From Mytilus edulis (lineage: Eukaryota), in NCBI RefSeq assembly GCF_963676685.1, contig NC_092346.1:94054001-94118000 (forward strand): 64,000 nt of DNA, in the 5' to 3' direction. Positions 22,851-48,299 of this stretch are shown here, piece after piece. The translations under genes and the position numbers were made by a program. Within the stretch, counting starts at the first letter, position 1, and every line of letters starts with the position of its first letter. A model generated the notes under the pieces. That model worked only from the letters and a program-made list of their open reading frames with translations, ran no database searches and was not told the DNA's origin.

Positions 22851-25800
22851 TCATGAAAAAATTGTATGTAGTGGGGACCAGAATCTTTCATAAGATGCTG
22901 CTCTATTATTTTTGTTTGCAATATAAAATTCATTAGATTGGTATTGTTTTATTCTGAATTTAAGTCCTATAAAACTAGGAGCTATATTTCTTAACTTACA
23001 TCTAAAGATGTAGTTTTTAGCTATAATTATTAACAAATTTATAAACAAACTCTTAGTAATAAATCCCAATAAAATTTCTGTCTTACTAATGCTGAAATGC
23101 TCATCAACTAATTTAATTTTCTGTAAAAATGACAACCAGAAATTGTATGTAATATTACAATCATAAAATAAATGTTCTATTGTTTCCTCTTCCTCATTAC
23201 AGAAGGTACATAGACTTGTTTCCTTTTGCTTAATTCTATATAAAAATGTATTAGTAGGTATAATTCTATGTAATATTTTATATTGAAAATTCTTTAAATA
23301 TGTATCCCTACAACATCTTTTTAAAAGAGAAAAATACTTAGACCATTCTGAGATTTCAGAATTTGTTACATTTCTCATATGGGAGTATGCATATTTTATC
23401 TACAAGATCTCTGTATACAAATTTTAACTTCTTATTTTCCAAGAAAATGCATCAAAAGGAACAAAGTTTTCTAAGTTCAAATCACAATAATCTTTGATGT
23501 ATTTTTTTTATATATTTTGGAATGTTAGATAATAAACTATAGTATCTCAAAAAAATTTCCAAATTAAGTTTTTGTCTTACTTGTTGGAATGTTAGTAGTG
23601 ATTTACTTTGACAATCTACAATGTCCCTTATAAACTGTATACCATATAACTTCCATTTCATATAAACAGGGTATTCAGATATTGGTATCAAGTTTAAAAT
23701 ATCCAATGACAAAATTTCTGGAGCACATAACTTTGTATAAGGCTTTGCCATGTGTAGACATTCAAATATGTCTTTCCAAAATGAATTTTTTAAGCGATTA
23801 GAAATTTCTTTAATCTTATCATTTTGTAATGTAAAGACTCTGTCACCACCTAACTGTTTTAGTTCTGCTAGTAATAAATTCTGCCAAGTACCATCTGAAT
23901 TTGATAAAAATCTCTTTACCCAAGATAATTTAAGATATGTACAGAAAGACTGCAAATGCACCATATTTAATCCTCCCTGTGAAAAATCTGCAATAAGAGT
24001 ACTACGCTTTACTCTATCAGTCTTACCATTCCAAATGAAATTAAAAAACATAGCACTCAGCTCATTTAATTGTGAGTGAGGTAAATTTGGGAGGGCAGTC
24101 AACAAATGAATCAGTCTCGGCAATGCCAGAGTCTTAATTACAGTAATTTTACCTAGTAATGTTAATTTTCTATGTTGCCAGCTTTTTAGTATAGCTGAAA
24201 CCTCTTTGATCTTTTTTCTAAAATTAATATCAAGAATACTTTTTAAATCAAGTGAAAAATCTATTCCTAAAAGTCTAAAGTTTGTGTGTGACCACATAAG
24301 ATTGTAATTAGGACACAATATTTGATCAGAATATTTTTTGTTACCAATCCAAACAGCTCTTGTCTTTGATTTGTTCATTTTCAATCCAGATAACATATAA
24401 AAAGAATCAAAACAATTGAGGCTTTCTTGTAGTGATGTCTCACTACCATCTAAAGTTAGAAAAGTATCATCTGCATACTGACTTAAAAGTGTTTGTTTTT
24501 CATTAATGAGAATACCGTGAATTTTGGGGTTTGACTTAAGTTTCAACGATAATAACTCTACACCAATAACAAACAAATAAGGGGAGAGCGTGTCACCTTG
24601 TCTGCAACCTCTCTCAAGATTGAAAAAATTTGACAAATTGCCATTGTTGATTACACAACTTTTAGCACTTTTGTAGAGAGTCTCGAACCATCTGCACATC
24701 GAAGGACCAAAATTAAAACTTTTTAATGCTTTTTGTAAAAATACCCAGTTAACAGAGTCAAATGCCTTTTCAAAATCAACTAATAAAAGTAAGGCGCTCA
24801 TGTTGTGATATTCAAGATAATGCATCAAATCATACAATAATCTAGTATTCTCCCCAATGAATCTCCCCTTGATAAATCCCTTTTGAGTGTCACTAATAAT
24901 AAATGGTAATACAGACTTAACTCTGTTTGCTATAGCTGCAGAAGCTATCTTTATGTCTGTATTTAATAGGCTGATAGGTCGCCAATTACCAATATATCGC
25001 TTATCTTTTCCTTCTTTTGTTATACAAGTTATGACACTTTGATATTGAAAATCTGAAAAAAGTCCAGATTCATATCCATAGAATAATGATCGATAAACAA
25101 ATGGTCCAAAATCTCTCCAAAAGAATTTGTAAAATTCGACAGTAAATCCATCGCTTCCTGGGGATTTCCCATTTTTCATCTTACTCAATGCTATAGCACA
25201 TTCCTCATATGTCAAGTTACCCTCACACAGGTCATGTTGTTCCTGTGTGAGAGTAACATCATGAGAAAAAAAGCTTTCACTTGAACAATCAATTTTTCTC
25301 TTTGAACACAAATTTTTATAAAAGTTATGTTGTTCTGAGAGAATCGTGGATTGGTCAGATGTATGATTACCCTGATCACCAATCATTTCAACCATTGTCT
25401 TCTTTATAAAATTTCTCTTTTCTAATTTTAAAAAGTATTAGGAACATTTTTCACCATTTTCATGCCAGTTTGCCCGGGACCGTAATAGTAAACCCTCTAT
25501 CTTCTGTTCTCTCATGGATTCTAACTCCACTTTTTTATCATTTAAATTGGTCTGTACAGCTTCAGTCGGGGCTGTATTCATAATTATATCTAAATTTTGT
25601 ATATCTTCTTCAAGTTTCAGAGTAGCTCTTTTTTCTTCTTTCGATTTAGATATACTGTGTGTAATGGATAAGGATCGGATTTTCATCTTCAGTACTTCAA
25701 GAAAAAATTTATCGTTACAAGAAAATTGTACATGAAATAGGTCATCTCTACTGTCTGAAAGATAGAACTCAGAAACAGTATCCTTTATACACATCTTTAC

Positions 25801-26599
25801 CTTTTCAACATATACAGTATCTCTCAACAACTGTGAATTAAACTTCCAATATCCCTTACCCCTTTTATCAAGACTGGCAGAAAATGTGAAAACAATGGCT
25901 GAGTGATCGGTTTTGTATCCAGGTATAATTTGCATTTTTCATAAGTGAAAATAAGTCTTCGCTCACTAAAAAATAATCTAATCGCCTCTGCTTGATAGGA
26001 GAGGTTTGACGCCAAGTAAATTTTTTGTCATCTGGATGACAGGTTCTCCATGGATCTAAAAGTTCAAAAGTTTGTGAAATTTCTTCAATCTTATTACGAG
26101 AGTTCAAATTTCTATTGTGCAGAATATTATAAGTGTCCATATGAAAATCTTGTACAACATTCCAGTCACCACACATTAAGATGCTAGTATTAGTATAGCA
26201 AGAGATGTTGTGTAAAATATCACTAAACAATGATGGTTCATCAGTATTAAATCCATAAACAGTGACAAAGGTTAGCCTTTGTTCATATAATGATAAGTCT
26301 AAAACAATAAAACGACCTTTCTGGTCTATCTTAGAATCATGAATCTTAAAATCTAGACCCTTGTTAAACATCACACTAACACCAGCACTTTTATTGTTGC
26401 AGTGACTGAAAATGCATGTATTACCCCATTCATCTTGCCAAAGTTTCTCGATATCCTCATTACTGTGAGTCTCTTGAAAACAAACAATAGATGCATGTTT
26501 ACCTCTTACCCAATTAAAAATATCTAATCTTTTTTTCTTGCTTGAAAATATGCCCCTTACATTCATAGATAAAACTGTAATATTATTATCAATACTCAT
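22851..26599 (-). pseudogene. LINE ORF2 (APE endonuclease, reverse transcriptase, zf-RVT) broken by ~3 frameshifts
   Basis: SMNVRG/FQETH/GDWN/RLDYF endonuclease (25868-26599); GYWKFN (25438-25935); KSPGSDG, WRPISLLN, DFEKAFDSV, RQGD, QYADD RT (23482-25395); CTFC...ETIEHLFYDC (22851-23378). Confidence 0.9.
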
Positions 26600-27212
26600 T
26601 AAGTAATATGTTCAATCAGACAATAGAAAAGCAAAGCAGTACAATACTTAAAATAAAAATGCATACCCATACTAACTTCACATTTATACATCACAAATAT
26701 ACACAAAAGATGGCGCTTGAAACAATATTTAATATACATCAGATACTTTTTACAGATTGGCTTCATATGATAAATAGCATATATTTTTTTATTCTGATAG
26801 TTTGGTGTTAAATGCTTTATTTTCTTTTTAAATTAACAGAAATGAGAACCTAGTATAATATTTTCTTTTTTCAATATTTATATAAATTTTTAGTGTGTTG
26901 AGAACGATTTTATGATAAAAATAAAAAAAAAGTTTTTGAAAATGGAGAATTAGTATAATTATATAGTTAAAAATGTTTTATTCAACTCTAAGCAAATCTT
27001 TGAACATATTTTCCTTAGAAAGTTATGAGGGAAAATTTCTTATAGTATATATAATATATAATAAAACATTCTAGTAATATAGAGTTACCTCCCATTAATC
27101 AAGAAAGCTTTTCCACTATTGATAATTAGAGTTACCTCCCATTTATGAACAAACAAAGAAGCAAAAAATTACCACAATTAATAAGATAGAAAATATTTAC
27201 ATACTTGAAAGT

Positions 27213-27696
27213 TTATATGCTTGAAAGTTTTTTTTTAATTTTCTCATCTATATTGTCATAAAGATCAAATTTGATTCTGTACACACTATCCTTCAATTTA
27301 TCATATACACTACAGTTGTAGAACCAGGCATTATTTAGCATCACATTTGTATTTAGTCTAGCTAATAGTCCAAGATTTCTTTGGGTTATATCGTCATGAA
27401 ATTTAATGTCATTCTTCAACCCCTTCTTATTTCTCATTATCTTGATTTTAATTTCTGTGTTACGGACCTTTGCTATCACAGGTTTGATGTTACCTTCTTT
27501 TCCTGGGATTCGATGTATTGCTATGACATCTGATGGTTCTATCTCAACATTTAAGTCTTTCTTCACCATTTTCACGAAAACATCTCGTAAGTTCTCATTT
27601 CTCTTTTCTGGAAAATTCACCATTCTTATATTATGTTTCCTGGAGTACTGTTCATTATAGTTTGCAGATTTAAGTGCATCTATGGACCTATGGTTG
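27213..27696 (-). pseudogene. LINE ORF1 C-terminal remnant (L1-type RNA-binding)
   Basis: EQYSRKHNIR...AIHRIPGK...FHDDIT motifs typical of L1/Tx1 ORF1p; cut off at the LTR. Confidence 0.75.
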
Positions 27697-27909
27697 TGAA
27701 GTGTTTGTGTGGGCTTGCTAATAACTTACCAACAATAACTGTCAGATTAGCGTAGCTTCTATAATATCTAGATTTCTTGTAGGAGCTGTGTAACACACCT
27801 CAGACATAGACCATGGGTTAGAACAGGAAGCCCCGAATTGCACGATCTCACTTCCGGCTAAGTATATATATTTCTCCTGAGAGTAGGAGCACCTCTGAGA
27901 TTCACTACA
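27697..27909 (-). repeat. 3' LTR (213 bp)
   Basis: Matches 37926-38142 apart from a few substitutions and one 4-bp indel. Confidence 0.95.
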
Positions 27910-27918
27910 CTCCTCCCT
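27910..27918 (-). other. Polypurine tract
   Basis: AGGGAGGAG immediately before the 3' LTR on the element strand. Confidence 0.8.
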
Positions 27919-28133
27919 GTCATCTTCTTTTTGTTGATCATTCTAGGGATTGTGAAGGCAATTGCAGTAATGTTCCTATCCGCAGAATTTTCATTTTTAT
28001 CCATGTCTTGATATACATAACACGTTATTGCGAATTTCCAAATATTAAAAATATAATTCAATGTTATTAAATGTTAATGACTTGTCGGAATGACAGGTGT
28101 GGTTGTGAACGTTCCTTCACCATTCCGATCTCC

Positions 28134-28490
28134 TTCCTTACACAAAACTTTAGGTGAACAGCACAGCTGTCGCACACTAGAATTCTGCATAACATAAATT
28201 ACTCCGATTCTTGATGATCCTATTCTTACACAAAATCCTAGATGGACAGCACAGCTGTCACACACTAGAATTCCGCATAACATAAATTACTCCTGATTCT
28301 TTATCCTCCTATCCTTACACAAAATCCTAGATGGACAGCACAGCTGTCACACACTAGAATTCCGCATAACATAAATTACTCCTGATTCTTTATCCTCCTA
28401 TCCTTACACAAAATCCTAGATGGACAGCACAGCTGTCACACACTAGAAATCCGCATAACATAAATTACTCCTGATTCTTCATCCTCCTAT
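28134..28490. repeat. Tandem array of ~4 x 89 bp in the Gypsy 3' UTR
   Basis: GACAGCACAGCTGTC recurs at 28245, 28334 and 28423 (variant at 28158). Confidence 0.9.
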
Positions 28491-28641
28491 CTCATTCCTT
28501 CCACCAAGGAATTTAATTACATATATACATATAAATGTCCATCATTTAAACATTCTTTAAATCCTTTTAAAGAAGTAATATTACTATAGGTCCACATAAA
28601 AAATATGTACATATATATAAGAAGTCACAAGTATTTATATC

Positions 28642-30150
28642 TCACTGTAATTTATAGATTTTCTTTGAATTTTCGGTAGTAATTTTGAAAACATCTTCAA
28701 TGGGTTGTTGTAAAAGTTCAGATATTTTAAGTGCAACTGCATGAACGGAGTAAGGATTTCCAATGGTGTGAGAATGTAGTGGGATATATGGAGCATCTAA
28801 TTCCAAAACTAAACGTGTAATGCCAAAAGTTTTCACAATTTCTACAATATTGGAGTATCGGTCCTTCAAAATAAATGGGGTAATGCCAAAAACAATGTTA
28901 GAGAATTGACTGACGGCTGCTGAGTACAGTTGAGTGGAACATGTGAAACAATGCCAATGAATTAATTGGTCCGGTTTGCATATTTCACTTAGAATGGCCA
29001 AAACATGTTCATGCAGTGATGGTTTTCCTCTTGAGTGTATAACGATAGTTAAATTCAATGCTGCTGCCAAATACAGTTGCTTTCTAAAATATGTAATTTG
29101 TCGGTTGAAATCTCTCCTTGAGGGGTTGGTAGAATCATCTAAAACAATCTCCCCTACTGCCACTGTTTTTGTTGATTTTAATAAATTTTGAAGATCAGTC
29201 CAATTATGTTCCAGAGATGAAGTTGATGATGAGCTTATAATTTTAGGATGAATGCCAAAGGTGAATCTTAAACGGTTATCTTTCCTGAATTCGCTGCGCT
29301 GTGCTGAGTTTGGCCAAGCTGACGGAAAAACAAAGTTAACAATGGCATATTTTAGTTCTGTCTTATAAATGCTTTGGGAGCCAAGGTCATCCAGATCCTG
29401 GAAAGCTCCACTACCCATCTGCCTACATAGTTGGTCTAGATGGAAGTGAGAGTCTATGATGGGTAGTGGTCCGGATAACTTTGTGCTCAACTGTCCAATT
29501 TGAAGTCCGTCTTTGTCCTTTCTTTCCTCGAATTTTAAAAGCCAAAGTTGTTCGTCTGAATTCAAATAACCAATGAGATTTTTGAGAATTTTCCAGTGAA
29601 GAATATGATAGATTTCCATTAGTGGAGTGGCAGGAATTTTGTAATCAGCAGCAGGCTCCATACAATTCAATTTCAAGAAAGAATCCACGAGTTTAACTTC
29701 AGAAATATGGAATTCTGTAGGCGGCAATTGTGTCCTAATTTTCATTATGGCATTCAGTTTCTCTTCAAGGCCTACTGGGTAGGAAGTGCCTAATGAACGT
29801 GCTAACTCTAGAAGACCGTTCATTAGCTCAGCGTACATCACTTCTCTGTTCTTAAAGGTAGCATCAATGGCATTTGTGGGATGACAGCGAGTTATGTGCT
29901 TGTTCAGGAAATTGGCTGTCTGTTCCTGAGTACCACCAATCCAACAGGCAGTCTCTGGCGCCACATACCATGGTAGATGAGTTTGAATGGTGTGTCTTCT
30001 TGGGTTGGTAAATGTGTGAAAGCAAATATCACACTCCCTGTGTCTCAAGCGGACATTTGTAGCCTCACCTCTGATAGCTATCTGCCTTTTAGGTTCAGTT
30101 AAGTGGTCCTGGTTCTCCTCCTCCTCATAATCCAATTCTTCCTCACTCAT
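28642..30150 (-). CDS. Retrotransposon-encoded TatD-family DNase with N-terminal acidic tract and C2H2-like zinc finger(s), 502 aa
   Basis: IIDSHFHLD, FGIHP, VAVGEIVLD, IVIHSR, IHWHCF, LVLELDAPY, NPYSV..VA, TTENSKKIY are the TatD motifs; CDIC-x9-H-x4-H at the N-terminus. Confidence 0.9.
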   Translation of the reverse strand: MSEEELDYEEEENQDHLTEPKRQIAIRGEATNVRLRHRECDICFHTFTNPRRHTIQTHLPWYVAPETACWIGGTQEQTANFLNKHITRCHPTNAIDATFKNREVMYAELMNGLLELARSLGTSYPVGLEEKLNAIMKIRTQLPPTEFHISEVKLVDSFLKLNCMEPAADYKIPATPLMEIYHILHWKILKNLIGYLNSDEQLWLLKFEERKDKDGLQIGQLSTKLSGPLPIIDSHFHLDQLCRQMGSGAFQDLDDLGSQSIYKTELKYAIVNFVFPSAWPNSAQRSEFRKDNRLRFTFGIHPKIISSSSTSSLEHNWTDLQNLLKSTKTVAVGEIVLDDSTNPSRRDFNRQITYFRKQLYLAAALNLTIVIHSRGKPSLHEHVLAILSEICKPDQLIHWHCFTCSTQLYSAAVSQFSNIVFGITPFILKDRYSNIVEIVKTFGITRLVLELDAPYIPLHSHTIGNPYSVHAVALKISELLQQPIEDVFKITTENSKKIYKLQ

Positions 30151-30254
30151 TATACCAGTCTAGAAAATACTGAATGAACCTACTAATTATTTATTGTTAC
30201 TTAATTTATTTTTTTTTATAAGGCTTTGAAAATGAGCAAATACTATTACCTTTA

Positions 30255-30367
30255 TGTGTGTTACCTTCGGCTGTTGTTTGCTCTATGGTCGGGTGGTTGT
30301 CGCTTTAACATATTCACCATTTCCTTTCTCAATTTTATCATAAAAATAAAAAAAAAAAAAAAAAAAA
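30255..30367 (+). repeat. Short interspersed repeat 3' fragment plus A-tract between pol and TatD
   Basis: ACCTTC..GCTGTTG..TATGGTCGGG..CATTTCC..CTCAATTTTA matches the ends of 54851-55090, 56790-57425 and ~1950-2020 (minus). Confidence 0.6.
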
Positions 30368-30438
30368 TAGGAAAAATATTACATACTTTAACATACTATA
30401 CAAAAATATTTAAAAACATTTGTGACGAACATCATCAC

Positions 30439-33400
30439 TCAAAACTCTTCGCTAACTACATCCACCACATAATCTGACAAATAGCTTGGCAGAAACCTCT
30501 TTCTTTTTACTCTATCTGATATTTCAGTTTTATCAGGTACTTTTAAAGTATTCTTATCAGGAGACAAGAGAACAGCACTGCTGTCACTATTGCCATTACT
30601 CATGTTAGCCAAATCCAATGGATCAGCACAACTACCATGATTAATATCATTCTCACTGTCTAAATCCAATCCAGGTACTTTTAAAGTATTCTTATCAGGA
30701 GACAAGAGAACAGCACTGCTGTCACTATTGCCACTACTTTCATCATTCCTATTCAATTGGACAGCACTGCTGTCACAGTTTGAATATGGAAGTGAAAATA
30801 AAACATCTGACCAACCATCAGGCAACTCGTTTTCTTCTTTTCTTGAATCCATATTCCCCTCTGGAACACACTGACCAAACAGACGGTTTCGAAGTCTCTT
30901 TATCCACAATGGGACAATTTCGTCGTCACATTGTTTTATCCTATCATGATGTATTACCATCTCTTTCTTTCTACTTGTAATTTCATACAACACAGGGGAC
31001 AATACTCTGGTTACTACATAGGGTCCCTGCCAGGGAGCCCTGAGTTTCTTGCTCTGACCTTCTTTTGATGTTGAATCCAACTTGAAAACAATATCACCTA
31101 CTTCGTAAGTTTTATGATACAATTTTATATCGTAAGTTCTTTTCTGACGAAGCTGAGCTGCCTGTAATTTTTCGCGCGCAAACTTATGAGCTTCCTGGAG
31201 AGTATTTTTTAGGTCAATTACATGATGAACGGTTTCCTTGGCTTCAAAATTGACAGAACAAGTTCCTGTTAGTAAATTGATTGGATGTAGTACTTCCCGA
31301 CCTAACATCATCATGTTAGGTGTAAACCCTGTCTGTCTATTCACAGTTGATCGTATAGCACCAGAAATGGTTTGTAAATGAAGGTCCCAATCTTTCTGTT
31401 TTCCCTTCAAATAACATCTGATGGCTTGTAAAATGGTTCGATTAAATCGCTCAACTTGTCCGTTAGAACATGGTCTATATGGAGTGGTCCTAGTTTTGAC
31501 GATTTGTAACAGTCTGCAAATATCATGAAACAAATGACCGTCAAAATTTTTCCCTTGATCGGTGTGAATTTGGACTGGACATCCCAATCTTGAAATGAAA
31601 CCGTCTAGTAATGTTTTAGCCACAGTAATTGTGTTTTGATTAGGTAATGGAAACATTTCCATCCATTTTGTGAATTGATCTACTAACACTAATACATATT
31701 TGTTAGCAGAAGAACTCTCGTGTAGTGGTCCTAGAATGTCCATGTGCAATTTTTCCATAGGAATTCCTGCGTGAAATTGACCTAGAGGCCCCTTTGGTTT
31801 GACGTTGGCTTTTTTGTTGACATTACAAGTATGGCAAGACTTCACATAATTTCTCGCGTCTTCCCTTAACCCAAACCAAATGTAATTCTGTTTTAATCTT
31901 TCAATAGTTTTTGCCTGTCCAAAATGCCCTGATAGTTTAGCATCATGACAATTCTCTAAGATTTTGTGTCTTAAAGATCTTGGAACAACTAATAACAATC
32001 TTGAATGAACTGGATCTAGCCATTTATAGCATAATATACCATCCTTAAGTACTAATTGATGTTTACAATTCCATAAATGTTTAATAGAAGGGCTACATAA
32101 ATATAATTCATGCTCCTCTGGTTCTTTTTTATCCTCTAACCATACTATCAATCTGTTAAGTTCCTGATCTTTCCTTTGTTCAGCTCCCATATTGGTAATT
32201 TCAGACTCGCTTATCCAATTACAATTCACTAAACTATCTAAATTGGTTTCGTCCAAATCTTCTTCTTGCTCTGAAACACTCCTTACAGACAATGGAACTA
32301 CATAATCGACATCATCTTCAAACGAACTCCAGACTTTTTGTGCTCGAGTACAATATGAGCAACCACCGCAAGGTAGCAATTTTATATCTGCACCAGCATA
32401 ATAACAATTACAAGAATCTAAATCATCTGGTCTCCTTGATAGTCCATCTGCATTGGTGTGTAGTTTCCCTGCTCTATGTTGTATTACCATGTCATATTGA
32501 GACAATTCCTCTAACCATCTGGCTAGTTGTCCTTCAATCATTTTAAACCTTAGTAGCCATGTCAAACTGTTATGATCTGTCCTTATGATGAATTGTTGGC
32601 CTAATAAATAATTCCTGAATTGTCTGGTAAATACTACAATCGCTAACAGTTCTTTCCTAGTGGTACAATATTTCCTTTGGGCTGGTGCCAATACCCTACT
32701 TGCATAACATATTACATACTCTTTTCCACCAATTACTTGTAATAATTCTGCTCCAATGGTGGTGTGGGAGGCATCGGTATCTAGAAGGAACTTTTCCTTT
32801 GGATCTGGATATGCTAATGTAACTGAGTTGACAAGTGCCTGTTGTAATGATTCAAAAGCTATCTGGTGTTGCTTTTCCCATTGAAAAATTACTTTCTTCT
32901 TTGTCAGAGCATACAAAGGCTCGGCAAGGGTGGCAAATCTTTTAATATGTTCCCTATGATAGTTGGTAAACCCAAGGAAAGATTCAACAGCTTTCTTCGT
33001 CAGAGGAACCGGCCAATTCAATATAACTTCTCTACTAGAGGGATTAACAGCTATTCCTTTCTCATTTACCAGTTTACCCAAGAAAATAACTTCTTTTTGG
33101 AAAAATTTGCATTTTTGTGGCTTTAATTTCAAATTATTTTCCCTGAATCTTTCTAGTACAGTTCTTAAATTTACAAGATGATCTTCAAAATCTTCACCCA
33201 GAACAATAACATCATCAATGTATGCTAGACATATTTTCCATGTCAAACCTGTCAAAATTAACTCTATCATCCGCTGAAAGAATGCAGGACTGTTACATAA
33301 TCCAAAACTGAGTCTTATGTGTTCGAAAAGTCCATATTTAGTTATGAATGCTGTCTTGTGTCTATCGTCCTCGTGTATCTCAGCCTGATAATATCCTGAT

Positions 33401-34851
33401 GCCATGTCTAGACAGGACATAAATTTACTACCTCTCAAAGTGTCGATACAGGTCTCTATTCTTGGAATCGGAAATGCGTCTTTTCGAGTAATAGAGTTTA
33501 ATTTCCTGTAATCAATACAGTACCTGATCTTCCCATCCTTCTTGCGAAGTAGTACTGGGGCTGCACTCCATTCTGATGATGATGGCTGTATGACTCCTCT
33601 ATTTAATAAATCTTTGAGATGCTTTTCTTCTTCTTCTTCTAACCCTAGTGGTGTTCGTCTCATTCTTTCTCTTACAGGAGCTGAGTTTCCAGTGTCGATC
33701 ATATGCTTAACCTTGGTATAATGTCCAATGTCGAGATCATGTTTTGAGAAGGTATCTTTAAAGTCCAGCAATAGTGACGCCAATCTCAGATTTTCGCTTA
33801 AATCTAAATTTTCCTTTGACGAATCTAATAAAGGTTTTAATTGTACAGGAAAATTGGAATACATTTCATCCCATTCATTTCTTAAGTCTCTAAGTTCCCT
33901 CTCCACTGTGTTAACTGACCTTACTGATGCTCTGTCCTCATAATCACACCTTTCCTCATCTATCACCCCATAAATTTCCATTGCTGTACCAATGAAGCGA
34001 TTTTTCTTCAGACTTATGGACTTATCTGTCAAATTGTTTAGGATAATAGGTACTCTTGAATCAGCTTTGGTCAAAATATTTGGCATAATCAGCCCATTCA
34101 AAGACTTACTTGGTTGAATAGCCACTTCATTTTTAAATTCCTCTGCCAATCTTACTGGTAGTCTGACAGTTGAATTAGGTGGAACAATAAGAGTCTCTTC
34201 CAACGTTATGCGGCAAATTTTCAAACTACTGTTTTCTGATTTAACTTCATTAATAAAATGTTTTTCACCTCTAATTGTTATTGACAAATCAGTCAAATCT
34301 ATCACGGCATCAAGATGTTTAAGAAAGTCTAATCCTAGTATCACTTGATCATTGATTTTAGCTACTATAATTTTCCACTTGGTATCAGTCTTCCCTACCT
34401 TAACTGTAACACATTCTGTGTACCTTGCTGTAATGCTATTGTCTTTTCCAGCACCTTGCAACATTAGCGAGCCTTTAAAAATTACCGGAGGCTTAAGTTT
34501 CTTTGCAAATTCTTCACTCATAAGTGTGACCTGGGCAGCTGTATCAATTACTGCGTTTACAGTTACCTCATTAATTGAAATACCTAACACAAGAGTATTG
34601 GATTCTGGATTTCGATCACTTGGATACAGTTGAACCTCACGTAATTGAGGATTATCAATACCATTCTTTGTATCTTCCTTTTGGCCACTATTGAAGTCTG
34701 TCAAGTTACAATGAACAGCACTGCTGTCACTAATTGTAACCTGTTTTTTCCCGAATACCTCTGGTTTCAATTCTCTAAAGGGAGATAATTGGCCTATTTG
34801 AGGTTTTTGGACTGATGAGCGACCTACATCTTCAGTCCTTGCTCGTTTAAA
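30439..34851 (-). CDS. pol: Gypsy Pol (aspartic protease, RT, RNase H, integrase), expressed by -1 frameshift from gag
   Basis: IDTAAQVT protease; RYCIDYRKLN, LDMASGY, AYIDD RT; DTDAS/TDH RNase H; H-H-C-C and D,D35E integrase; GPY motif. Frame is open from the slippery site. Confidence 0.95.
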   Translation of the reverse strand, partial: FKRARTEDVGRSSVQKPQIGQLSPFRELKPEVFGKKQVTISDSSAVHCNLTDFNSGQKEDTKNGIDNPQLREVQLYPSDRNPESNTLVLGISINEVTVNAVIDTAAQVTLMSEEFAKKLKPPVIFKGSLMLQGAGKDNSITARYTECVTVKVGKTDTKWKIIVAKINDQVILGLDFLKHLDAVIDLTDLSITIRGEKHFINEVKSENSSLKICRITLEETLIVPPNSTVRLPVRLAEEFKNEVAIQPSKSLNGLIMPNILTKADSRVPIILNNLTDKSISLKKNRFIGTAMEIYGVIDEERCDYEDRASVRSVNTVERELRDLRNEWDEMYSNFPVQLKPLLDSSKENLDLSENLRLASLLLDFKDTFSKHDLDIGHYTKVKHMIDTGNSAPVRERMRRTPLGLEEEEEKHLKDLLNRGVIQPSSSEWSAAPVLLRKKDGKIRYCIDYRKLNSITRKDAFPIPRIETCIDTLRGSKFMSCLDMASGYYQAEIHEDDRHKTAFITKYGLFEHIRLSFGLCNSPAFFQRMIELILTGLTWKICLAYIDDVIVLGEDFEDHLVNLRTVLERFRENNLKLKPQKCKFFQKEVIFLGKLVNEKGIAVNPSSREVILNWPVPLTKKAVESFLGFTNYHREHIKRFATLAEPLYALTKKKVIFQWEKQHQIAFESLQQALVNSVTLAYPDPKEKFLLDTDASHTTIGAELLQVIGGKEYVICYASRVLAPAQRKYCTTRKELLAIVVFTRQFRNYLLGQQFIIRTDHNSLTWLLRFKMIEGQLARWLEELSQYDMVIQHRAGKLHTNADGLSRRPDDLDSCNCYYAGADIKLLPCGGCSYCTRAQKVWSSFEDDVDYVVPLSVRSVSEQEEDLDETNLDSLVNCNWISESEITNMGAEQRKDQELNRLIVWLEDKKEPEEHELYLCSPSIKHLWNCKHQLVLKDGILCYKWLDPVHSRLLLVVPRSLRHKILENCHDAKLSGHFGQAKTIERLKQNYIWFGLREDARNYVKSCHTCNVNKKANVKPKGPLGQFHAGIPMEKLHMDILGPLHESSSANKYVLVLVDQFTKWMEMFPLPNQNTITVAKTLLDGFISRLGCPVQIHTDQGKNFDGHLFHDICRLLQIVKTRTTPYRPCSNGQVERFNRTILQAIRCYLKGKQKDWDLHLQTISGAIRSTVNRQTGFTPNMMMLGREVLHPINLLTGTCSVNFEAKETVHHVIDLKNTLQEAHKFAREKLQAAQLRQKRTYDIKLYHKTYEVGDIVFKLDSTSKEGQSKKLRAPWQGPYVVTRVLSPVLYEITSRKKEMVIHHDRIKQCDDEIVPLWIKRLRNRLFGQCVPEGNMDSRKEENELPDGWSDVLFSLPYSNCDSSAVQLNRNDESSGNSDSSAVLLSPDKNTLKVPGLDLDSENDINHGSCADPLDLANMSNGNSDSSAVLLSPDKNTLKVPDKTEISDRVKRKRFLPSYLSDYVVDVVSEEF
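34804..34851 (-). promoter_or_regulatory. -1 ribosomal frameshift signal
   Basis: T TTA AAC heptamer (34845-34851) in the gag frame, followed by a GGACTGA/TCAGTCC stem with possible AGGT/ACCT pseudoknot; pol is in the -1 frame with a TAG just upstream. Confidence 0.8.
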
Positions 34852-36746
34852 GTCCCCTCTCTAAGATTATTATTTGGAGATGGTGATCTGTTGCGTCTCA
34901 TTGGCGACCAACTTTTCTTTGGACACTGTGTACTGTAATGGCCCATTTCCCTACACGTATAGCATTGTATATCCCGTATATCTCTGGTTGGACTTCGTCC
35001 TCTTGGTGAAGGCGACCTTTGGCGATCAGCAGTGGTTTTGGGACTGATTGAGTTGATAATCTTCTTGATGTCTGATTTAATGGTCCAGATATGTTGTTCT
35101 GTAGTTGCCATTCTTGTTTCCATAGTCTCATACTTTTTCTGTAAGTCTTGCATACTAGAATTATTTGCCGTTTTGACTTGACGTACTAAACATTCTGTAC
35201 TTTCTTCATCTGAGTCATCATAAAACTGAACCCTTTTTACCTCTGGCTTTCTATACCCTAATAAAATCTTTTGGTTGTGAATGGAGCTCTTAACATATTG
35301 TAACGCTTGGTCCATTGTATTTGGGTCTTTCTCCATGGCAAATAGCGCTGCTTTTTTGTCCGTACACCCCTTCAAAAAAGCGTCAACGGCTATAGTATCA
35401 ACTACATTCTCTGGTGTATTTAGATAACCATCTGTTGCTAGTTCCTGTATCCTTTCGGCAAACTCCTCTATCGACTCATCCTCTTGCAATTGACGCCTAA
35501 TGGTGTGAGGTAAATCTTTATTCCCAAATCTTTGACTCAACTTTTGAACTAACACGTCATAGTCCTTTTGAACGGTCTCTTGGCGAGTACTCACAAATTT
35601 CAGAGCCTTATCTCTGAGGCATTCAATTAGACGATCTAATTTTTGTTCATTAGACCATTCATACTTCCTGGCTATATGGTTAAATTGCATGAAATACGGC
35701 TTCCATTCTGATTTCCCATCAAAAATGGCTAGCTTTGGTGGTGTTGGTCCAGAACGTTGATTGGATTTAACATCCTTACAGCTCGAGTCATCTTTTCCCT
35801 TCCCTGATGTTGGAGTTTTCCCATTGTTATTAATCTCTTCTTTTGAGTCTCCAAGTTTATCTGGGCTAAATGTTTGTCTGGATTTAAGCTTTGCAGAATC
35901 ACTATACCAGGAACTAGCTGACATCTCAGTTACTTTACCCCTAAATATATCTCCTGGAGCTAGCTTTTCAGAAATAAGTCGTGATGTTTTAAAATGCTGT
36001 AATTGCTCTTCTAATGCAGTTAATTTCCTGCCATGTTCTGCATCCCTTTGTTTCATCTGCTTATATTGCTCCTTGCTCCTTTCTCTTTCTTTATCCATCT
36101 CTTGAGCCTGTTCCATGACCTTATCCATTAATGTTTGACGTTCCCGTTGCATGCTCTCCATTTGTTCTGAAAAACCACCTTCTTTTTCTGCCATAGTACT
36201 CTCATACTGATGTTGTAACTCACTCATTTCTTGTTTAATTTGTGTATTTTCAAAACTCAACTCTTTTTGACTTTTTTCCCTTTCCAGTTGATCCTTCTCC
36301 ACTTCTCTTTGAAAATTATCTTTTGTTTGTTGGAGTTCAGCAAGGCATTCCTCTATCTCTGCTGACTTACGCCATAGTTGCTTCTCAAAAGTTACTTTTA
36401 AATCTTCAAGTTCTTTCGTATATTCCCTTTTTGAATGAACTTTGTCTTGTTCTGCAATTAACAACTTTGTCTTATACTGTTCTATTAATGCAGAAGTGTC
36501 ACCTTGTGCTGTTGGTTGCTTTTCTGGAGTTTCTTCCTCTGGACTAACTTCAACTGTGCCATTCCTTATCAATGGGTCCCAAATCGTGTTTGGTACACCT
36601 TCTATCATCTTTAGATCTTCTAATGTCAAGGTGCCTTTAATTTTTCTTGCTTTTATAATTAAATTGGCTCTGGCCTCCCCTATGTCTCTAATTTCCATTA
36701 ACTCTTCTTTTGTCGCAGTATTGATGTTAATTGTCGACATCTTCAC
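34824..36746 (-). CDS. gag: Gag with N-terminal helix-hairpin-helix, coiled coil, capsid-like region and CCHC knuckle, 640 aa
   Basis: ININTATKEELMEIRDIGEARANLII (HhH); FDGKSEWKPY...ESIEEFAERI...AFLKG capsid motifs; CYTCREMGHYSTQC. Confidence 0.9.
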   Translation of the reverse strand: MKMSTININTATKEELMEIRDIGEARANLIIKARKIKGTLTLEDLKMIEGVPNTIWDPLIRNGTVEVSPEEETPEKQPTAQGDTSALIEQYKTKLLIAEQDKVHSKREYTKELEDLKVTFEKQLWRKSAEIEECLAELQQTKDNFQREVEKDQLEREKSQKELSFENTQIKQEMSELQHQYESTMAEKEGGFSEQMESMQRERQTLMDKVMEQAQEMDKERERSKEQYKQMKQRDAEHGRKLTALEEQLQHFKTSRLISEKLAPGDIFRGKVTEMSASSWYSDSAKLKSRQTFSPDKLGDSKEEINNNGKTPTSGKGKDDSSCKDVKSNQRSGPTPPKLAIFDGKSEWKPYFMQFNHIARKYEWSNEQKLDRLIECLRDKALKFVSTRQETVQKDYDVLVQKLSQRFGNKDLPHTIRRQLQEDESIEEFAERIQELATDGYLNTPENVVDTIAVDAFLKGCTDKKAALFAMEKDPNTMDQALQYVKSSIHNQKILLGYRKPEVKRVQFYDDSDEESTECLVRQVKTANNSSMQDLQKKYETMETRMATTEQHIWTIKSDIKKIINSISPKTTADRQRSPSPRGRSPTRDIRDIQCYTCREMGHYSTQCPKKSWSPMRRNRSPSPNNNLREGTLNEQGLKM

Positions 36747-37554
36747 TTTTATTTAATACACAATAATTACTTCTATATCAAATAAATTTTAAGATACGTT
36801 TTAAATACGGCCAGCACAGCTGACTCACTCAATGATACGTTTTAAATACGGCCAGCACCGCTGACTCACTCAATACCCCTAAATTAATTTTAACACGGCC
36901 AGCACTGCTGACACGATCATGTAAATTTATTTATTTATTTTTCTAGATTTCCGTTTATATTCTAATGTTTTATCTCAAGTATGCTCAATCAAAAAATTTA
37001 CTTTAATCAATATGATTATCCATAAATATATATATATCTATCTATAGTTTGAAAAAATTACAACAAAAATAACACCAAAAAACACAGCAAATATAAATAT
37101 AATAACCAAGTATATGTGTAGAAAAAAATAATAAATCTTTATTTCAATTATATGTGTAGAAAAAATAGTAAGTCTTTATTTCAATGTACAACAATTAGAC
37201 TAATATAACTATTCTGAATATCTATAGCATCAAATCAATATCTTTCTTGCTTTGTAATAATAATTTATATATATTCAATTACTAACATGTATATCACACA
37301 AACTGAATATATAATGCGGTATACTTTTATTATATACCCCAAAGAAAAATATACACACTGTAATAGTATCTGCCAATTGCTCAATTATGTCTATTTCTAA
37401 TACTTTTATTAGTTTAAATTAAACAAATAACATACATTAGGACAGCACTACTGTCTCAATAATCATATTTTTGAATTTTGATAATTGGCCAGTACTACTG
37501 ACTCAGATTAAATAAAAATTTGCCTAAAGAATTTCAATCTTTTGATGTTTTGTT

Positions 37555-37668
37555 TTTATAATTGTCTCCCTTTTCGTGTAACAACTGGTTTTTGTTTTTG
37601 TTTTGATAATTGTCTCCCTTTTCGTGTAACAACTGGTTTTGTTTTTATAATTGTCTCCCTTTTCGTGT
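37555..37668. repeat. 3 x ~40-48 bp tandem repeat in the Gypsy 5' leader
   Basis: ATAATTGTCTCCCTTTTCGTGTA occurs three times. Confidence 0.8.
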
Positions 37669-37911
37669 ACAAACTGAAATTCAGTTCATACGGTTTATAT
37701 TTTGTTTGTTTTCACCTTTATTCAAGTGAAGTGAGTATATTCAATTCAATGGTTCACAGTTTTATTGGTAATGGTGTGGAAATAATGCGTGAATGTTTAA
37801 TTCACAGGGATAACACGGTTCAATTGACAAATTTGACCCGCGAAAATCAAAATTTCAACACGACGCGTTTCGCGTTGAAAAGACTATTTTCCACCTGTGT
37901 CAATGACTTTT

Positions 37912-37924
37912 ACATCTGACACCA
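37912..37924 (-). other. Primer-binding site, tRNA-Leu type
   Basis: TGGTGTCAGATGT one base after the 5' LTR, resembling the TGGTGTCAGAAGT Leu PBS. Confidence 0.75.
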
Positions 37925-37925
37925 G

Positions 37926-38142
37926 TGAAGTGTTTGTGTGGGCTTGCTAATAACTTACCAACAATAACTGTCAGATTAGCGAAGCTTCTATAATATCTAG
38001 ACTTTATGTAGGAGCTGTGTAACACACCTCAGACATAGACCATGGGTTAGATAGAACAGGAAGCCCCGAATTGCACGATCTCACTTCCGGCTAAGTATAT
38101 ATATTTCTCCTGAGAGTAGGAGCACCTCTGAGATTCACTACA
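37926..38142 (-). repeat. 5' LTR (217 bp)
   Basis: TGTAG...CTTCA on the element strand, adjacent to the PBS. Confidence 0.95.
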
Positions 38143-39483
38143 GTTGCAATCGCTTATTATTGATTATGATGTAAGTGTGTGTAATATTAATCGGTTCTCT
38201 TAGTTATGTATAATAATTGACCATTCACATGTTTTAGTATTTGAAAAAAAACTTTCGTTGCAATCCTTTAAGTGATGAAATGATATCTTTTTTTATAAAA
38301 GTCAATACAAAAGGATGTGAACGAGAAGTTACTACAGGGAATCAAAGTTGCATAAACATTCTTTGTTATATTGTACAATTACCCTTGCTGACTCGATGGT
38401 CGGTAGTTGTCAAATTAAGCATAGCAAATACAAAGAACAATTCAACTAAGAAAAAGGACGCTTATCTATTATAAATTTCATTACATATGTTTGCGGGACA
38501 TTTCACACAACAATGATCATTTATATGGCATCGTGTTGTCAACCTGTAGCACACATTACCGCAAAATTATAGGCTTGCTTATGACGTCTTGAACGTTTAA
38601 GGAGATGTGAGCAATTGCTCTCTATTGCAAACAGGCGTTTGATTCAAAGGAAAACAGTGAGAAATGTCCTGGTATTGAAAAGTATGTAAAAGGGGTTCGT
38701 GTCATTTATTTAAAATCATTGCATCACATATCAATATGGGTTTGTTGTTTCATATATATTTACATTTGTATATAAAAGTTTATCGCGCTCGAACAAAACA
38801 TATACCTTAAAAATGAAGTCTCTTATATATTTATAAATTTATCTTAGAATGTTATTCAAAAAACATTATTTGTCAAACTGCGTAAACTGGTTTCGTTAAA
38901 TATATTAAATTAACCTACGTTAATAAAAAATAGAAGCACCACGAGTGACTAAAAGTATGTATTTTGTCTTTGAACGTGCATGGTGAAGGTATATCCAGAA
39001 TAGAGCTTCGAGTGCATACAATTTTTAAGCGCTCTTTTTCATATTTTCTATATCATAATAACAACCAACTCAGGCCCGATGGTATCATCAGCTCAATTGA
39101 CAGTGCTTTTGTACAGCAGTTATTACATACATTTCCCTAATTGTCCGTTTATAAATTGAGAAACACGCACAAAACAAATGTTCAAACCTGTCTTTTTAAG
39201 GAAACTTGCCTTCTTTTCTCCAGTTCGTTTGCCTAATTGAGGTTTTGTTTTGAAATGATTCTTTATAGTATTGTATCATTCAACTGTCTTCTTAGGATTC
39301 AATTTGACCTTTCACGGAAGCTAGATAAAAATTATCACTAACAATTAAATAAATAAACAACAGTTTGAATCGTTGTTATTCTGATAACGAATTAGTATGT
39401 TTTGAATGTATCAAAGACTTAAATGAGTTGTGCAGAAAAGGTAAAATAACAAAAATACTGATCTCCTAGGAAAATTCAATTAC

Positions 39484-46602: not shown

Positions 46603-47509
46603 AAAGAACCTTAGTGAGCACGCTCACATACCCCACGTCCCCACATTGTCATTGGAGAAATTAAATAAGTGTAAGAAAAAAAATTGTATAAGAAAAAATA
46701 TTGAATAATAATTTCCTGTCAATATGCACATCAACATAGTTTGTCCTTATTATCTACAAAATTTCATGAAATTCTGTTGTGTGGTTTCAGCGGAATTGAG
46801 ATGACAAACTCTTGCAGAAGCAAATTGAAGCAAATAAGTTCAAAGGGGCGTAACTCCTAGAAAAAAAAATTGAATCGTAATTTCCTGTCGATATGCACAT
46901 CTACATAGTATGTCCTTATTATCTACAAATGTTCATGAAATTCTGTTGTGTGGTTTCAGAGGAGTTGCGATGACAAACTGTTGAAGTAGTACCTTAAAGC
47001 AAATAAGTTCAAAGAGATGTAACTCCTAGAAAAAAAATTGAATCGTAATTTCCTGTCGATATGCACATCTACATAGTATGACCTTATTATCTTAAAACGT
47101 TTTATAAAATTCTGTTGTGTAGTTTCAGAGGAGTTGCGATGACAAACTGTTGCAGTAGTACAATAAAGTAAATAAGTTCAAAGGGGGGGGGGTAACTCCT
47201 AGAAAAAAAATTGAATCGTAATTTCCTGTCGATATGCACATCTACATAGTATGTCCTTATTATCTAAAAAGGTTTCGTGAAATTCTGTTGTGTAGTTTCA
47301 GAGGAGTTGCGATGACAAACTGTTGCAGTAGTACATTAAGCAAATAAGTTCAAAGGGGCGTAACTCCTAGAAAAAAAATTGAATCGCAATTTCCTGTCGA
47401 TATGCACAACTACATAGTATGTCCTTTTCATCTGAAAAGGTTTCGTGAAATTCTGTTGTGTGGTTTGAGAGGAGTTGCGATGACAAGAAACAGGACTGAC
47501 GGACGGACG

Positions 47510-47545
<36 letters not shown>

Positions 47546-47560: not shown

Positions 47561-48299
47561 AAAAAATATCTACACAACGATTTTTTTACGGAAATTGATC
47601 ATTCATCCGGAATGACTTTTCGGGTTCTTTTATTATCTAAACAGAAACGAATTGCGGTCAAGTGACCTCACACGACTTTTCTTTTCCTAGTGTTTGGACA
47701 ATATTTTTTGAAGTGTTTCGAGAATTTGGATTATTAATTTCGATGTGGTTTTGAAAGCTTGGAATAATATTGCGAAAAGGTAAGTTGGAGTGTAAATATA
47801 TTTTTCATATTTGCACCTTCAATCTTTATTAAATTTGTTATTGATTTGACCCAGATAAGTACCGTGTCGTGACCTTTACCTGCCAAAGTTTGTTAACAAC
47901 ATTGATTTTTTTTCAATTGCTATACCTTTTGAAAAATATTCGTTTTAGAAATCAATTTTTAATTGCTAAAAAATCATTCGTAAACATAGCGATTAAGATT
48001 ATAACACAATGTTGCCCTTTTACCCCAATTTTGACATTTGTGCCTTTATTATTGTTTTTCTTTCACACATTATTGTCAATATAATGGAATTGTATGAGTC
48101 TTTTATGCAAGTGAGAGATTAAGCTAGGTATAATACCAGGTTTACCCCACCATTTTATGCACAAGAAAATGCATGTACCAAGTCCGGAATATGATAGTTG
48201 TTATCCATTGAGGTGTTTTAGCTTTTGATTTTGTCATTTGATTATGACTCTCCGCCTGAATTTTCGTAGGAGATCAGTATTTTTGCTATTTTACCTTTT

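Follow-up and report, generated by a model that had tools for sequence, protein, structure and literature searches.

The window, a stretch of 64,000 nucleotides of Mytilus edulis DNA, carries on its minus strand a young Gypsy LTR element with gag, pol and a third open reading frame, ORF3, which encodes zinc fingers and a TatD nuclease domain. The element has the LTRs with a target-site duplication, the putative PBS and the PPT of Ty3/Gypsy elements as well as their domain order, i.e. gag followed by PR-RT-RNase H-IN; the portion of PMC6238403 covered here names C-clade and MolGy1-16 as mollusc clades of Gypsy elements. The parts of the element, in the direction of transcription, are as follows.

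37926..38142, minus strand: 5' LTR (TG...CA), with 96.3% identity to that at the 3' end; 4-bp target-site duplication at the element ends
37912..37924, minus strand: putative PBS, a PBS-like TGG... stretch
34824..36740, minus strand: gag, with an HhH at the N-terminus, a capsid-like region and a CCHC knuckle
34845..34851, minus strand: heptamer UUUAAAC, presumably the slippery site, where gag and pol overlap; pol is in the -1 frame
30439..34860, minus strand: pol, with protease, RT, RNase H and integrase (Gypsy order)
28642..30150, minus strand: ORF3, with two C2H2 fingers and a helical domain (about 29506-30048), then the TatD nuclease domain
27697..27909, minus strand: 3' LTR, with a purine tract before it

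An acceptor-like pyrimidine tract with an AG lies immediately upstream of ORF3. All 13 copies of a short hairpin that a preliminary description had placed in this region are found at their positions and in one orientation (13/13), but the perfect form GACAGC-NNN-GCTGTC, which it had given as the motif, occurs only 4 times. Neither LTR contains a hairpin of this kind.

37487..37504, minus strand: hairpin 1, 5' leader; U-A closing pair (both sides changed), U-G in the stem
37440..37457, minus strand: hairpin 2, 5' leader; closing pair U-G
36897..36914, minus strand: hairpin 3, 5' leader
36850..36867, minus strand: hairpin 4, 5' leader; 41-bp duplication unit
36809..36826, minus strand: hairpin 5, 5' leader; copy of hairpin 4 with a different loop
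34713..34730, minus strand: hairpin 6, linker at the N-terminus of pol, with a long basal stem
30759..30776, minus strand: hairpin 7, tail of the integrase, with a long basal stem
30708..30725, minus strand: hairpin 8, integrase tail; 138-bp duplication
30570..30587, minus strand: hairpin 9, integrase tail; copy of hairpin 8
28422..28439, minus strand: hairpin 10, 89-bp array of the 3' UTR
28333..28350, minus strand: hairpin 11, 89-bp array of the 3' UTR
28244..28261, minus strand: hairpin 12, 89-bp array of the 3' UTR
28156..28173, minus strand: hairpin 13, last, diverged unit of the 3' UTR array; G-U in the stem

On the sense (minus) strand of the element, the core CAGCNGTGCTG is exact at 11 sites and carries one change at another (37453) and two at the last (37500), while dinucleotide shuffles of the element (n=300) contain it at a mean of 0.0 and a maximum of 0. 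The consensus common to the 13 sites is G-N-G-W-CAG-Y-NGT-R-CTG-K-Y-C, and the hairpin of the window's own family (family A) combines an NGU loop with a stem of 6 bp and a single bulge. Hairpins are placed where coding constraint is low, i.e. in the leader, domain linkers, integrase tail, ORF3 and 3' UTR; hairpin 6 is present 1 to 3 times in sister copies, as a 96-bp unit. Because some sites fall in the 89-, 138- and 41-bp duplications, the 13 sites represent only 8 independent contexts. Recent local duplication, which in the preliminary description would have refuted the idea had it explained all sites, accounts for 5 of the 13 and leaves these 8 contexts.

A search of the 1.37-Gb genome with the full 18-nt form gives 131 matches, and one with its reversed control gives 0. 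Among the 100 matches listed (131 in total), 98 lie in copies of the window's family, and one of the remaining two is a diverged fragment of the same family. A general host factor, which had also been proposed, is disfavoured by this near confinement of the full motif to the element. Within the window, the single core match outside the element, at 1055 on the opposite strand, belongs to an unrelated dispersed repeat. A host-wide DNA site was considered and rejected: the 11-nt core does match the genome 1009 times, where a CpG-containing control matches 131 times, but of 20 solitary core matches sampled on contig C1, 15 belong to one unrelated repeat and 0 have both outer pairs. An open word search returned many chance words and one satellite.

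Evidence for pairing in RNA

Within the 13-site family, 70 of 70 cells are paired across 7 pairs, a value matched in 1/500 shuffles, with slid controls reaching 21-54%. Swaps at paired cells are of the types A-U/U-G, C-G/U-A and G-C/G-U, and two pairs have changed on both sides. The motif cores of the wider comparison were picked after the data had been viewed, so that the tests in this and the next sentence are optimistic: at 74 independent core sites in 8 families, 194 flank positions comprise 128 Watson-Crick, 28 G-U, 9 A-C and 29 other combinations against 50, 22 and 23 expected for the first three (G-U versus A-C, p=0.0014); basal stems are more stable than flank shuffles (mean z -1.62, 67 sites); and synonymous resampling with amino acids fixed (n=400) attains the observed count in 0/400 cases for 10 of 11 elements and in 4/400 for one. 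The arrangement CGG-N5-CTG, which gives G-U on the sense strand, outnumbers its mirror 9:0, 8:0, 4:0, 3:0, 6:2 and 2:1 in six elements, and the sense strand folds more stably at 49/67 sites (mean -2.3 versus a background of -0.1 kcal/mol). Families F, K and M, whose hairpins are near-perfect palindromes, show no strand bias in folding energy. Together these patterns make it very probable that the sites are selected RNA hairpins.

A neutral origin, i.e. hairpins as by-products of local duplication and of template switching at palindromes during reverse transcription, would suit the five duplicated sites and the only moderately lower polymorphism of the stems within the window's family (7/108 positions versus 281/2091 in non-coding sequence), where 5 of 11 variant stem letters disrupt a pair. 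Its probability is nevertheless slight, since the apex alone is common to the 8 contexts, template switching would yield perfect Watson-Crick arms and no strand bias, and the same core in the unrelated repeat never has both outer pairs in the 20 sites sampled.

C2H2 fingers usually bind DNA, and the sites might also be palindromic double-stranded operators bound by an ORF3 dimer. The near-perfect palindromes of families F, K and M would fit such operators, as would the best fold matches of the ORF3 N-terminal domain, which are finger pairs bound to DNA (Z up to 4.4), followed at Z about 3 by weak HTH controllers, but these Z values fall inside the background range. At the DNA level such a system would be akin to VANC of Arabidopsis VANDAL elements, an extra element-encoded protein with short family-specific targets spread by tandem-repeat amplification; the elements on which VANC acts are, however, DNA transposons, and its effect is a loss of DNA methylation (PMC5735166), whereas the mussel targets behave as RNA hairpins, many of them coding. 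Operators, which the preliminary description had entertained, are very unlikely here: left and right flanks covary per site, G-U on the sense strand is retained and A-C purged, and stems continue beyond a one-sided bulge, pairing features of which duplex recognition needs none. Nor is the encoded peptide the conserved entity. The four pol sites do share one frame and all read DSSAV, as had been observed, but a DSSAV protease site was rejected because the hairpin unit also occurs in UTRs and, in other families, is written in different frames and encodes different peptides; the peptide is, by this comparison, a by-product. As far as these sequence patterns tell, the sites are RNA hairpins, not a DNA palindrome or a peptide. 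A role as frameshift stimulator was likewise discarded, the nearest hairpin lying about 100 nt past the slippery heptamer.

In outline the family A hairpin resembles the iron-responsive element (IRE), with a lower stem, a single 5' bulge, a 5-bp upper stem and a C-G-closed AGU triloop (10.1101/524991, in part), and a host RNA-binding protein might read it as an IRE mimic. CAGUG, as in the CAGWGH loop of the IRE, is present at 5/13 sites, and the sixth unpaired base at 0/13, a loss that IRP1 and IRP2 tolerated in the yeast three-hybrid assay described in the same portion of that source. In place of the unpaired C five pairs below the loop, 8 of the 13 sites have a bulged U, 4 an A and 1 a C, and this C is never combined with CAGUG. 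An Rfam search over 27500-38300 at E up to 5 gave one chance snoRNA match and no IRE; loops and stems differ in other families, and the confinement of the full motif to the element also speaks against a host reader, so that we regard IRE mimicry as quite unlikely.

Hairpins of related families

Among 16 families of the same clade, all compared within this one genome, a family's own dispersed hairpin stands above the shuffle null in 9, weakly in 3 and not in 4. The preliminary description had looked to conservation in related elements, and this holds for the kind of structure but not for the letters: the motif itself is not conserved in relatives, which differ in loops, stems and apical code, and the family-by-motif table, optimistic for the reason given above, is largely diagonal. 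Judged by the sequences, the apical stem and loop are fixed and stand on a base that varies but stays paired, and the apical code differs between families. The repeated cis signal that had been suggested is supported, in the form of an RNA triloop hairpin, by the pairing, by the asymmetry between strands and by its recurrence across families. At the homologous position directly behind the TatD HxH motif, families B, C, D, E, F and K each have a hairpin of their own kind, and the window's own family has none. Families D, E and G do not pass the unbiased scan, and families P, Q, Q' and R' have kept the ORF3 N-terminal domain and show no repeated hairpin. Outgroup Gypsy elements pass the strict test in 0/15 cases; in a looser scan 4/15 exceed the maximum of 10 shuffles, with groups that are AT-rich or tandem. 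A metagenome scan for relatives matched the TatD domain only (24-35% identity), and scanned viral contigs gave no match.

Candidate readers of the hairpins

In ssRNA viruses and HBV, dispersed packaging signals (MS2 TR-like; PMC6281560, in part) are many same-apex stem-loops over the genomic RNA, coding regions included, as are the mussel hairpins, and Gag, through its capsid, its Arg/Ser-rich tail or NC/HhH where present, might bind the latter and assemble the particle on RNA of its own family. Family-specific hairpins would prevent cross-packaging, and HhH-Gag marks the same clade, being absent in the 15 outgroup elements. The mussel case differs, however, in concerning an LTR retrotransposon with a family-varying apex, where the usual Gag RNA-binding domains can be absent: family N retains 8 hairpins and the ORF3 N-terminal domain with a Gag that lacks both HhH and CCHC knuckle, which weakens the Gag-NC part of the packaging/dimerisation triloop originally envisaged and leaves its triloop part standing. 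Furthermore, ORF3 and the 3' UTR contain many of the sites (in family R, 5/8 inside ORF3), and therefore a spliced ORF3 mRNA would carry hairpins too, while knuckle-bearing outgroup Gags mostly come without such hairpin sets. We consider packaging the main alternative to reading by ORF3, though a less likely one.

Family R has 8 hairpins and an ORF3 that lacks TatD and keeps the N-terminal domain. Because of families N and R, the zinc-finger/helical domain is the best candidate reader, and from sequence comparison we put the probability that the element's own ORF3 protein reads the hairpins at roughly 0.5. This domain occurs in none of the 15 outgroup elements; its first C2H2 finger is invariant, and the domain as a whole diverges fastest between families (23-52% identity versus 56-76% for RT). 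Also common to all families are the Gag capsid with its Arg/Ser-rich tail, RT and integrase, and co-variation cannot single out ORF3 because the ORF3, Gag and RT trees (the last a quick tree) are broadly congruent. The predicted fold of the N-terminal domain is confident (pLDDT 95.8), and in a full-length ORF3 model this domain is poorly predicted; Foldseek against PDB and BFVD gave no match at E up to 0.001 (best Z 4.4), and an Atlas fold search led to clusters without a name and to weak C2H2 leads. In large ankyrin and B-box proteins, which have no TatD, this domain is repeated 2 to 5 times; such proteins could be host-captured sensors or decoys. Concerning expression of ORF3, an AG lies <=1 nt from its first in-frame ATG in 10/12 families, and three raw RNA runs, with a depth <2 outside a short shared repeat, showed no ORF3 splice junction.

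The TatD domain itself is clear (PF01026, E 1.3e-39), with PDB matches to TatD proteins only and His, Glu and Asp ligand columns that are invariant or at least 90% conserved in 15 aligned sequences. Such conserved metal ligands, hairpins within ORF3's own coding sequence and 3' UTR, and the cleavage of hairpin RNA in vitro by human TATDN2 (PMC10711561, in part) would be in keeping with negative feedback, in which the zinc-finger domain directs TatD to cut the element's own RNA and limits copy number. This is unlikely, as family R has hairpins without TatD and gain of sites by tandem duplication would be unexpected for a self-destruct mark. Rather, because copies gain sites in this way, the effect of the hairpins in cis is probably positive, not negative.

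In retroviral export of the Rev/Rec type, an accessory protein from a spliced mRNA acts on its own RNA. Rev-type response elements are single large structures found only in unspliced RNA, whereas the mussel hairpins are many, small and also present in ORF3 and the 3' UTR, hence not confined to unspliced RNA. The Cer1 CERV of C. elegans similarly has an LTR-element accessory protein that is made from a spliced mRNA and acts on its own RNA (PMC10309623, in part); a text search of that paper found no passage on 'stem-loop' or 'cis-acting'. Bdelloid LTR retrotransposons carry DEDDy 3'-5' exonuclease ORF3s, also a captured nuclease in env position with separate expression; the mussel nuclease has instead the TatD fold, fused to a zinc-finger/helical domain, and the portion of the bdelloid paper covered (PMC5408684) mentions neither TatD nor hairpins. 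The literature searched, with subscription journals and Repbase reports outside the search, yielded no zinc-finger/TatD accessory gene and no description of such hairpins; by title and abstract start, nothing on topic combined TatD with LTR retrotransposons or Gypsy, and HhH, Gag and Gypsy together led to the Cer1 CERV work alone.

Under the ORF3 reading, the hairpins would be a family-specific self tag on the element transcript. ORF3, whose mRNA is probably spliced, would attach via its C2H2-finger/helical N-terminal domain to many hairpins on each RNA of its own family. In the manner of Rev- or CERV-type proteins, it would thereby license these RNAs for export, stabilization or evasion of silencing, and TatD would serve as an optional nuclease effector. 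More tentatively, and with a probability that we rate as low, the clade may encode a fast-evolving RNA barcode together with its reader, each family having its own hairpin and an ORF3 domain that reads it and brings the TatD nuclease to the RNA, e.g. to remove R-loops or intermediates of silencing from nascent transcripts of its own family, or to cut the RNA of rivals while sparing its own.

A few model elements aside, it is a largely open question how LTR retrotransposons discriminate their own RNA from that of the host or of related families. In the present case, a single genome offers a dozen families whose hairpin tags are visible and differ from one another, as well as natural losses of candidate reader domains, which makes the question of the reader directly testable as a protein-by-hairpin binding matrix. 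The hairpin set has the look of a barcode for self-recognition, and its reader may be the extra zinc-finger protein of the element; if so, these families would constitute a natural panel of orthogonal protein-hairpin pairs, and with ORF3 as the reader such pairs would be candidate orthogonal RNA-tagging tools.

The hairpin array of a Gypsy-type element

All 13 hairpin-like sites flagged in the preliminary description proved to be real and in a single orientation, with shuffled sequence yielding none, and all lie within one element:

38142 to 27697, minus strand: Gypsy-type LTR retrotransposon, host of all 13 hairpin sites

Its LTRs, which are free of hairpins, share 96.3% identity across 218 columns, and the insertion has a 4-bp target-site duplication. 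The gag product carries an N-terminal HhH and a CCHC knuckle, pol encodes PR, RT, RNase H and IN, and a third ORF (ORF3) contains a TatD nuclease domain; the nearest named proteins are from Mytilus (96%), which places the host in or near this mussel genus. Twelve sister copies fetched from the same genome, which together with the window copy represent family A, are 91-99% identical to it and hold 7 to 12 matches apiece to the core, i.e. the shared inner stem-loop letters, at the same positions.

The initially proposed motif, GACAGC-NNN-GCTGTC, did not hold up as such, as the perfect palindrome is present only four times; the common sense-strand unit is G-N-G-W-CAG-Y-NGT-R-CTG-K-Y-C. This unit has 131 genome matches, and among those listed, family A copies hold 98 of 100 and a diverged family A fragment one more. 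Local duplications (89, 138 and 41 bp) explain five of the 13 sites, whereas eight stand in independent contexts. That sites are gained through tandem duplication may point to a benefit in cis. The 11-nt core inside an unrelated repeat served as negative control and had both outer pairs in 0/20 sites. A lone core match at 1055 is part of an unrelated dispersed repeat, whose context recurs at 15 of the 20 solitary matches sampled in the genome.

Immediately downstream of the retrotransposon lies a minus-strand LINE-type element (22851-27725; endonuclease 25868-26611, RT 23482-25437, in several frames), whose ORF1-like frame (27213-27725), without Pfam match, reaches into the 3' LTR. Long dispersed and inverted repeat pairs, 92-99% identical, surround the retrotransposon (38144-39478 and 48257-49592; also 13855, 39600 and 60948), and 46690-47510 is a tandem array of ~170-bp units. 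The pol-ORF3 spacer contains a short fragment of an abundant repeat (30260-30330), which takes most RNA reads mapped to the element, the reads continuing into other sequence.

Folding and pairing on the sense strand

The suggestion of a repeated cis signal forming an RNA triloop hairpin is supported by folding and by pairing. Each of the nine sites folded on the sense strand forms a 6-bp stem with a triloop; below it come a bulge or small internal loop and then basal pairing that is unrelated in sequence between sites. Eight of the nine fold less stably in antisense. When 11 sites, 10 of them distinct, are aligned, 70/70 cells pair, a count whose structure came from the same sequences, so that slid controls are lenient. 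Pairs are swapped in this alignment (A-U 6/U-G 4; C-G 8/U-A 1/U-G 1; G-C 7/G-U 3), and within the seven aligned pairs every deviation from the perfect palindrome is a G-U on the sense strand. That the sites are DNA operators is accordingly a very improbable reading. Among family A copies, stem positions are polymorphic at 7/108 versus 281/2091 other non-coding positions; this is a weak test, with 5/11 variant stem letters disrupting a pair and C-to-T commonplace anyway. By inspection, the disrupting letters occur in the two most diverged copies.

Family-specific apices among related elements

Searching the genome for TatD brought up 104 matches, and we sampled 20 diverged TatD-bearing elements, 20 picked by RT similarity and further stretches. 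In a quick RT tree (38 rows), all HhH-Gag/ORF3 elements fall in a single 23-row clade (SH-aLRT 99). Conservation in relatives applies to the type of structure and not to the motif: the family A array occurs in 0/20 TatD elements, and relatives bear hairpins of their own instead. An unbiased scan for repeated shared-apex hairpins placed 9/16 clade families above shuffles, with GC-rich cores (the degraded locus L049 stayed unplaced).

Hairpin cores of families above shuffles in the unbiased scan
Family A: CAG-N5-CTG
Families B and C: CCGG-N5-CTGG
Families F and K: CAG-W-N3-W-CTG
Family N: GCC-N3-GGC
Family M: CCGT-N4-ACGG
Family O: GTG-N6-CAC
Family R: CCA-N3-TGG

A targeted look found 3 to 5 related hairpins each in families D, E and G, below the scan threshold (E and D copies are partial), and no repeated hairpins were detected in P, Q, Q' and R'. 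Among 15 Gypsy elements outside the clade (10-kb loci, some without one element end), none reached 0/30 shuffles in a strict scan (best 2/30); in a looser scan, 4/15 rose above the highest of 10 shuffles, their groups being AT-rich or tandem. One outgroup element, L058, has a marginal GTG-N7-CAC group in its leader region, chiefly in tandem repeats. At locus L035, two family M-like 3' UTR sites are oriented opposite to four upstream GNNN-loop sites, and in the GC-rich family P, which has no detected hairpin set, the integrase ends C-terminally in a PHD finger (L051:5277-6206, E 1.7e-10).

Flanks of 74 independent core matches from eight families, chosen regardless of flanks, comprise 128 Watson-Crick, 28 G-U, 9 A-C and 29 other pairs at 194 positions (against 50 Watson-Crick, 22 G-U and 23 A-C expected). 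G-U is retained and A-C purged (p=0.0014); pooled p-values are optimistic because cores were picked after inspection. Families differ in the middle pair of the shared core, which may be A-U, G-U or G-C. Compared with shuffled flanks, basal stems have the greater stability (mean z -1.62; 30/67 below -1.64), and sense is more stable than antisense at 49/67 sites, families F, K and M being without bias. The proposed synonymous-site check came out positive: with protein sequence fixed, resampling never reached the observed hairpin count in 10/11 elements. A neutral origin is the least probable explanation of all. The homologous position directly behind the TatD HxH motif holds a hairpin in six families, each with its own version and with differing peptides; families A, G, N and O have none there. 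At the level of sequence, we show that the hairpins are selected on the sense strand, with a family-specific apex, and dispersed through linkers and UTRs.

A candidate reader of the hairpins

We propose, with a probability of about one half and from sequence comparison, that ORF3 binds the hairpins and would thereby license transcripts of its own family. Its C2H2-finger/helical N-terminal domain is kept in both family N and family R, each with eight hairpins. Family N is young and present in multiple copies, one of its hairpins having 20 matches at ~12 loci, and its Gag lacks both HhH and CCHC knuckle; in L037-L040 of this family the Gag tail is Ser/Pro/Arg-rich and LTR pairs are 100% identical. 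That the hairpins are packaging signals read by Gag is the foremost alternative, if a rather unlikely one; Gag capsid, like RT and IN, is common to all families, which also tells against ORF3 as the reader, as do congruent domain trees and four families that retain the N-terminal domain without a detectable hairpin set. In family R, ORF3 terminates without TatD. Feedback by TatD is improbable, even if an RNA substrate for this domain is plausible by analogy, because human TATDN2 is reported to cleave hairpin RNA and RNA of R-loops (PMC10711561).

The N-terminal domain is missing in 15/15 outgroup elements and diverges fastest between families, its first C2H2 finger being invariant. The predicted fold comprises two fingers and a helical domain (pLDDT 95.8); a search of solved structures brought up no clear relative, finger pairs scoring best at Z 4.4. 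In 10/12 families, the first in-frame ATG of ORF3 has an acceptor-like AG no more than 1 nt away; RNA reads were too sparse to reveal a splice junction. Clustering at 50% leaves 974 representatives of the domain, with TatD also in 70/148 top records. Seven proteins of 1,000-3,000 aa (P0016, P0020, P0021, P0031, P0033, P0035, P0163) contain it two to five times, possibly reflecting host capture; they lack TatD and combine the domain with ankyrin repeats or a B-box. In six outgroup elements (L061, L062, L063, L067, L070, L071), pol is followed by a further ORF that gives weak C2H2 finger matches and lacks TatD, and a tyrosine-recombinase/DUF3504 frame adjoins another outgroup element (L069:9084-9749).

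Reading by a host factor, or mimicry of an IRE, is slightly less probable than TatD feedback. The family A hairpin departs from an IRE at the bulged C and at the sixth loop base, although loss of this base can be tolerated (10.1101/524991). The working mode resembles that of dispersed packaging signals (PMC6281560) and of the CERV/Rev-type accessory system (PMC10309623), and the evolution that of VANC targets (PMC5735166); the hairpins are assigned to none of these, each resemblance being partial in its defining features. An ORF3 nuclease is also known from bdelloid LTR elements, where its fold differs from TatD (PMC5408684). The literature covered, i.e. outside subscription journals and Repbase reports, yielded no TatD-bearing Gypsy elements and no such hairpins.

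Overall, the RNA signal is real and selected, and apparently undescribed. With a family-specific code and natural domain losses, its reader is open to direct testing.
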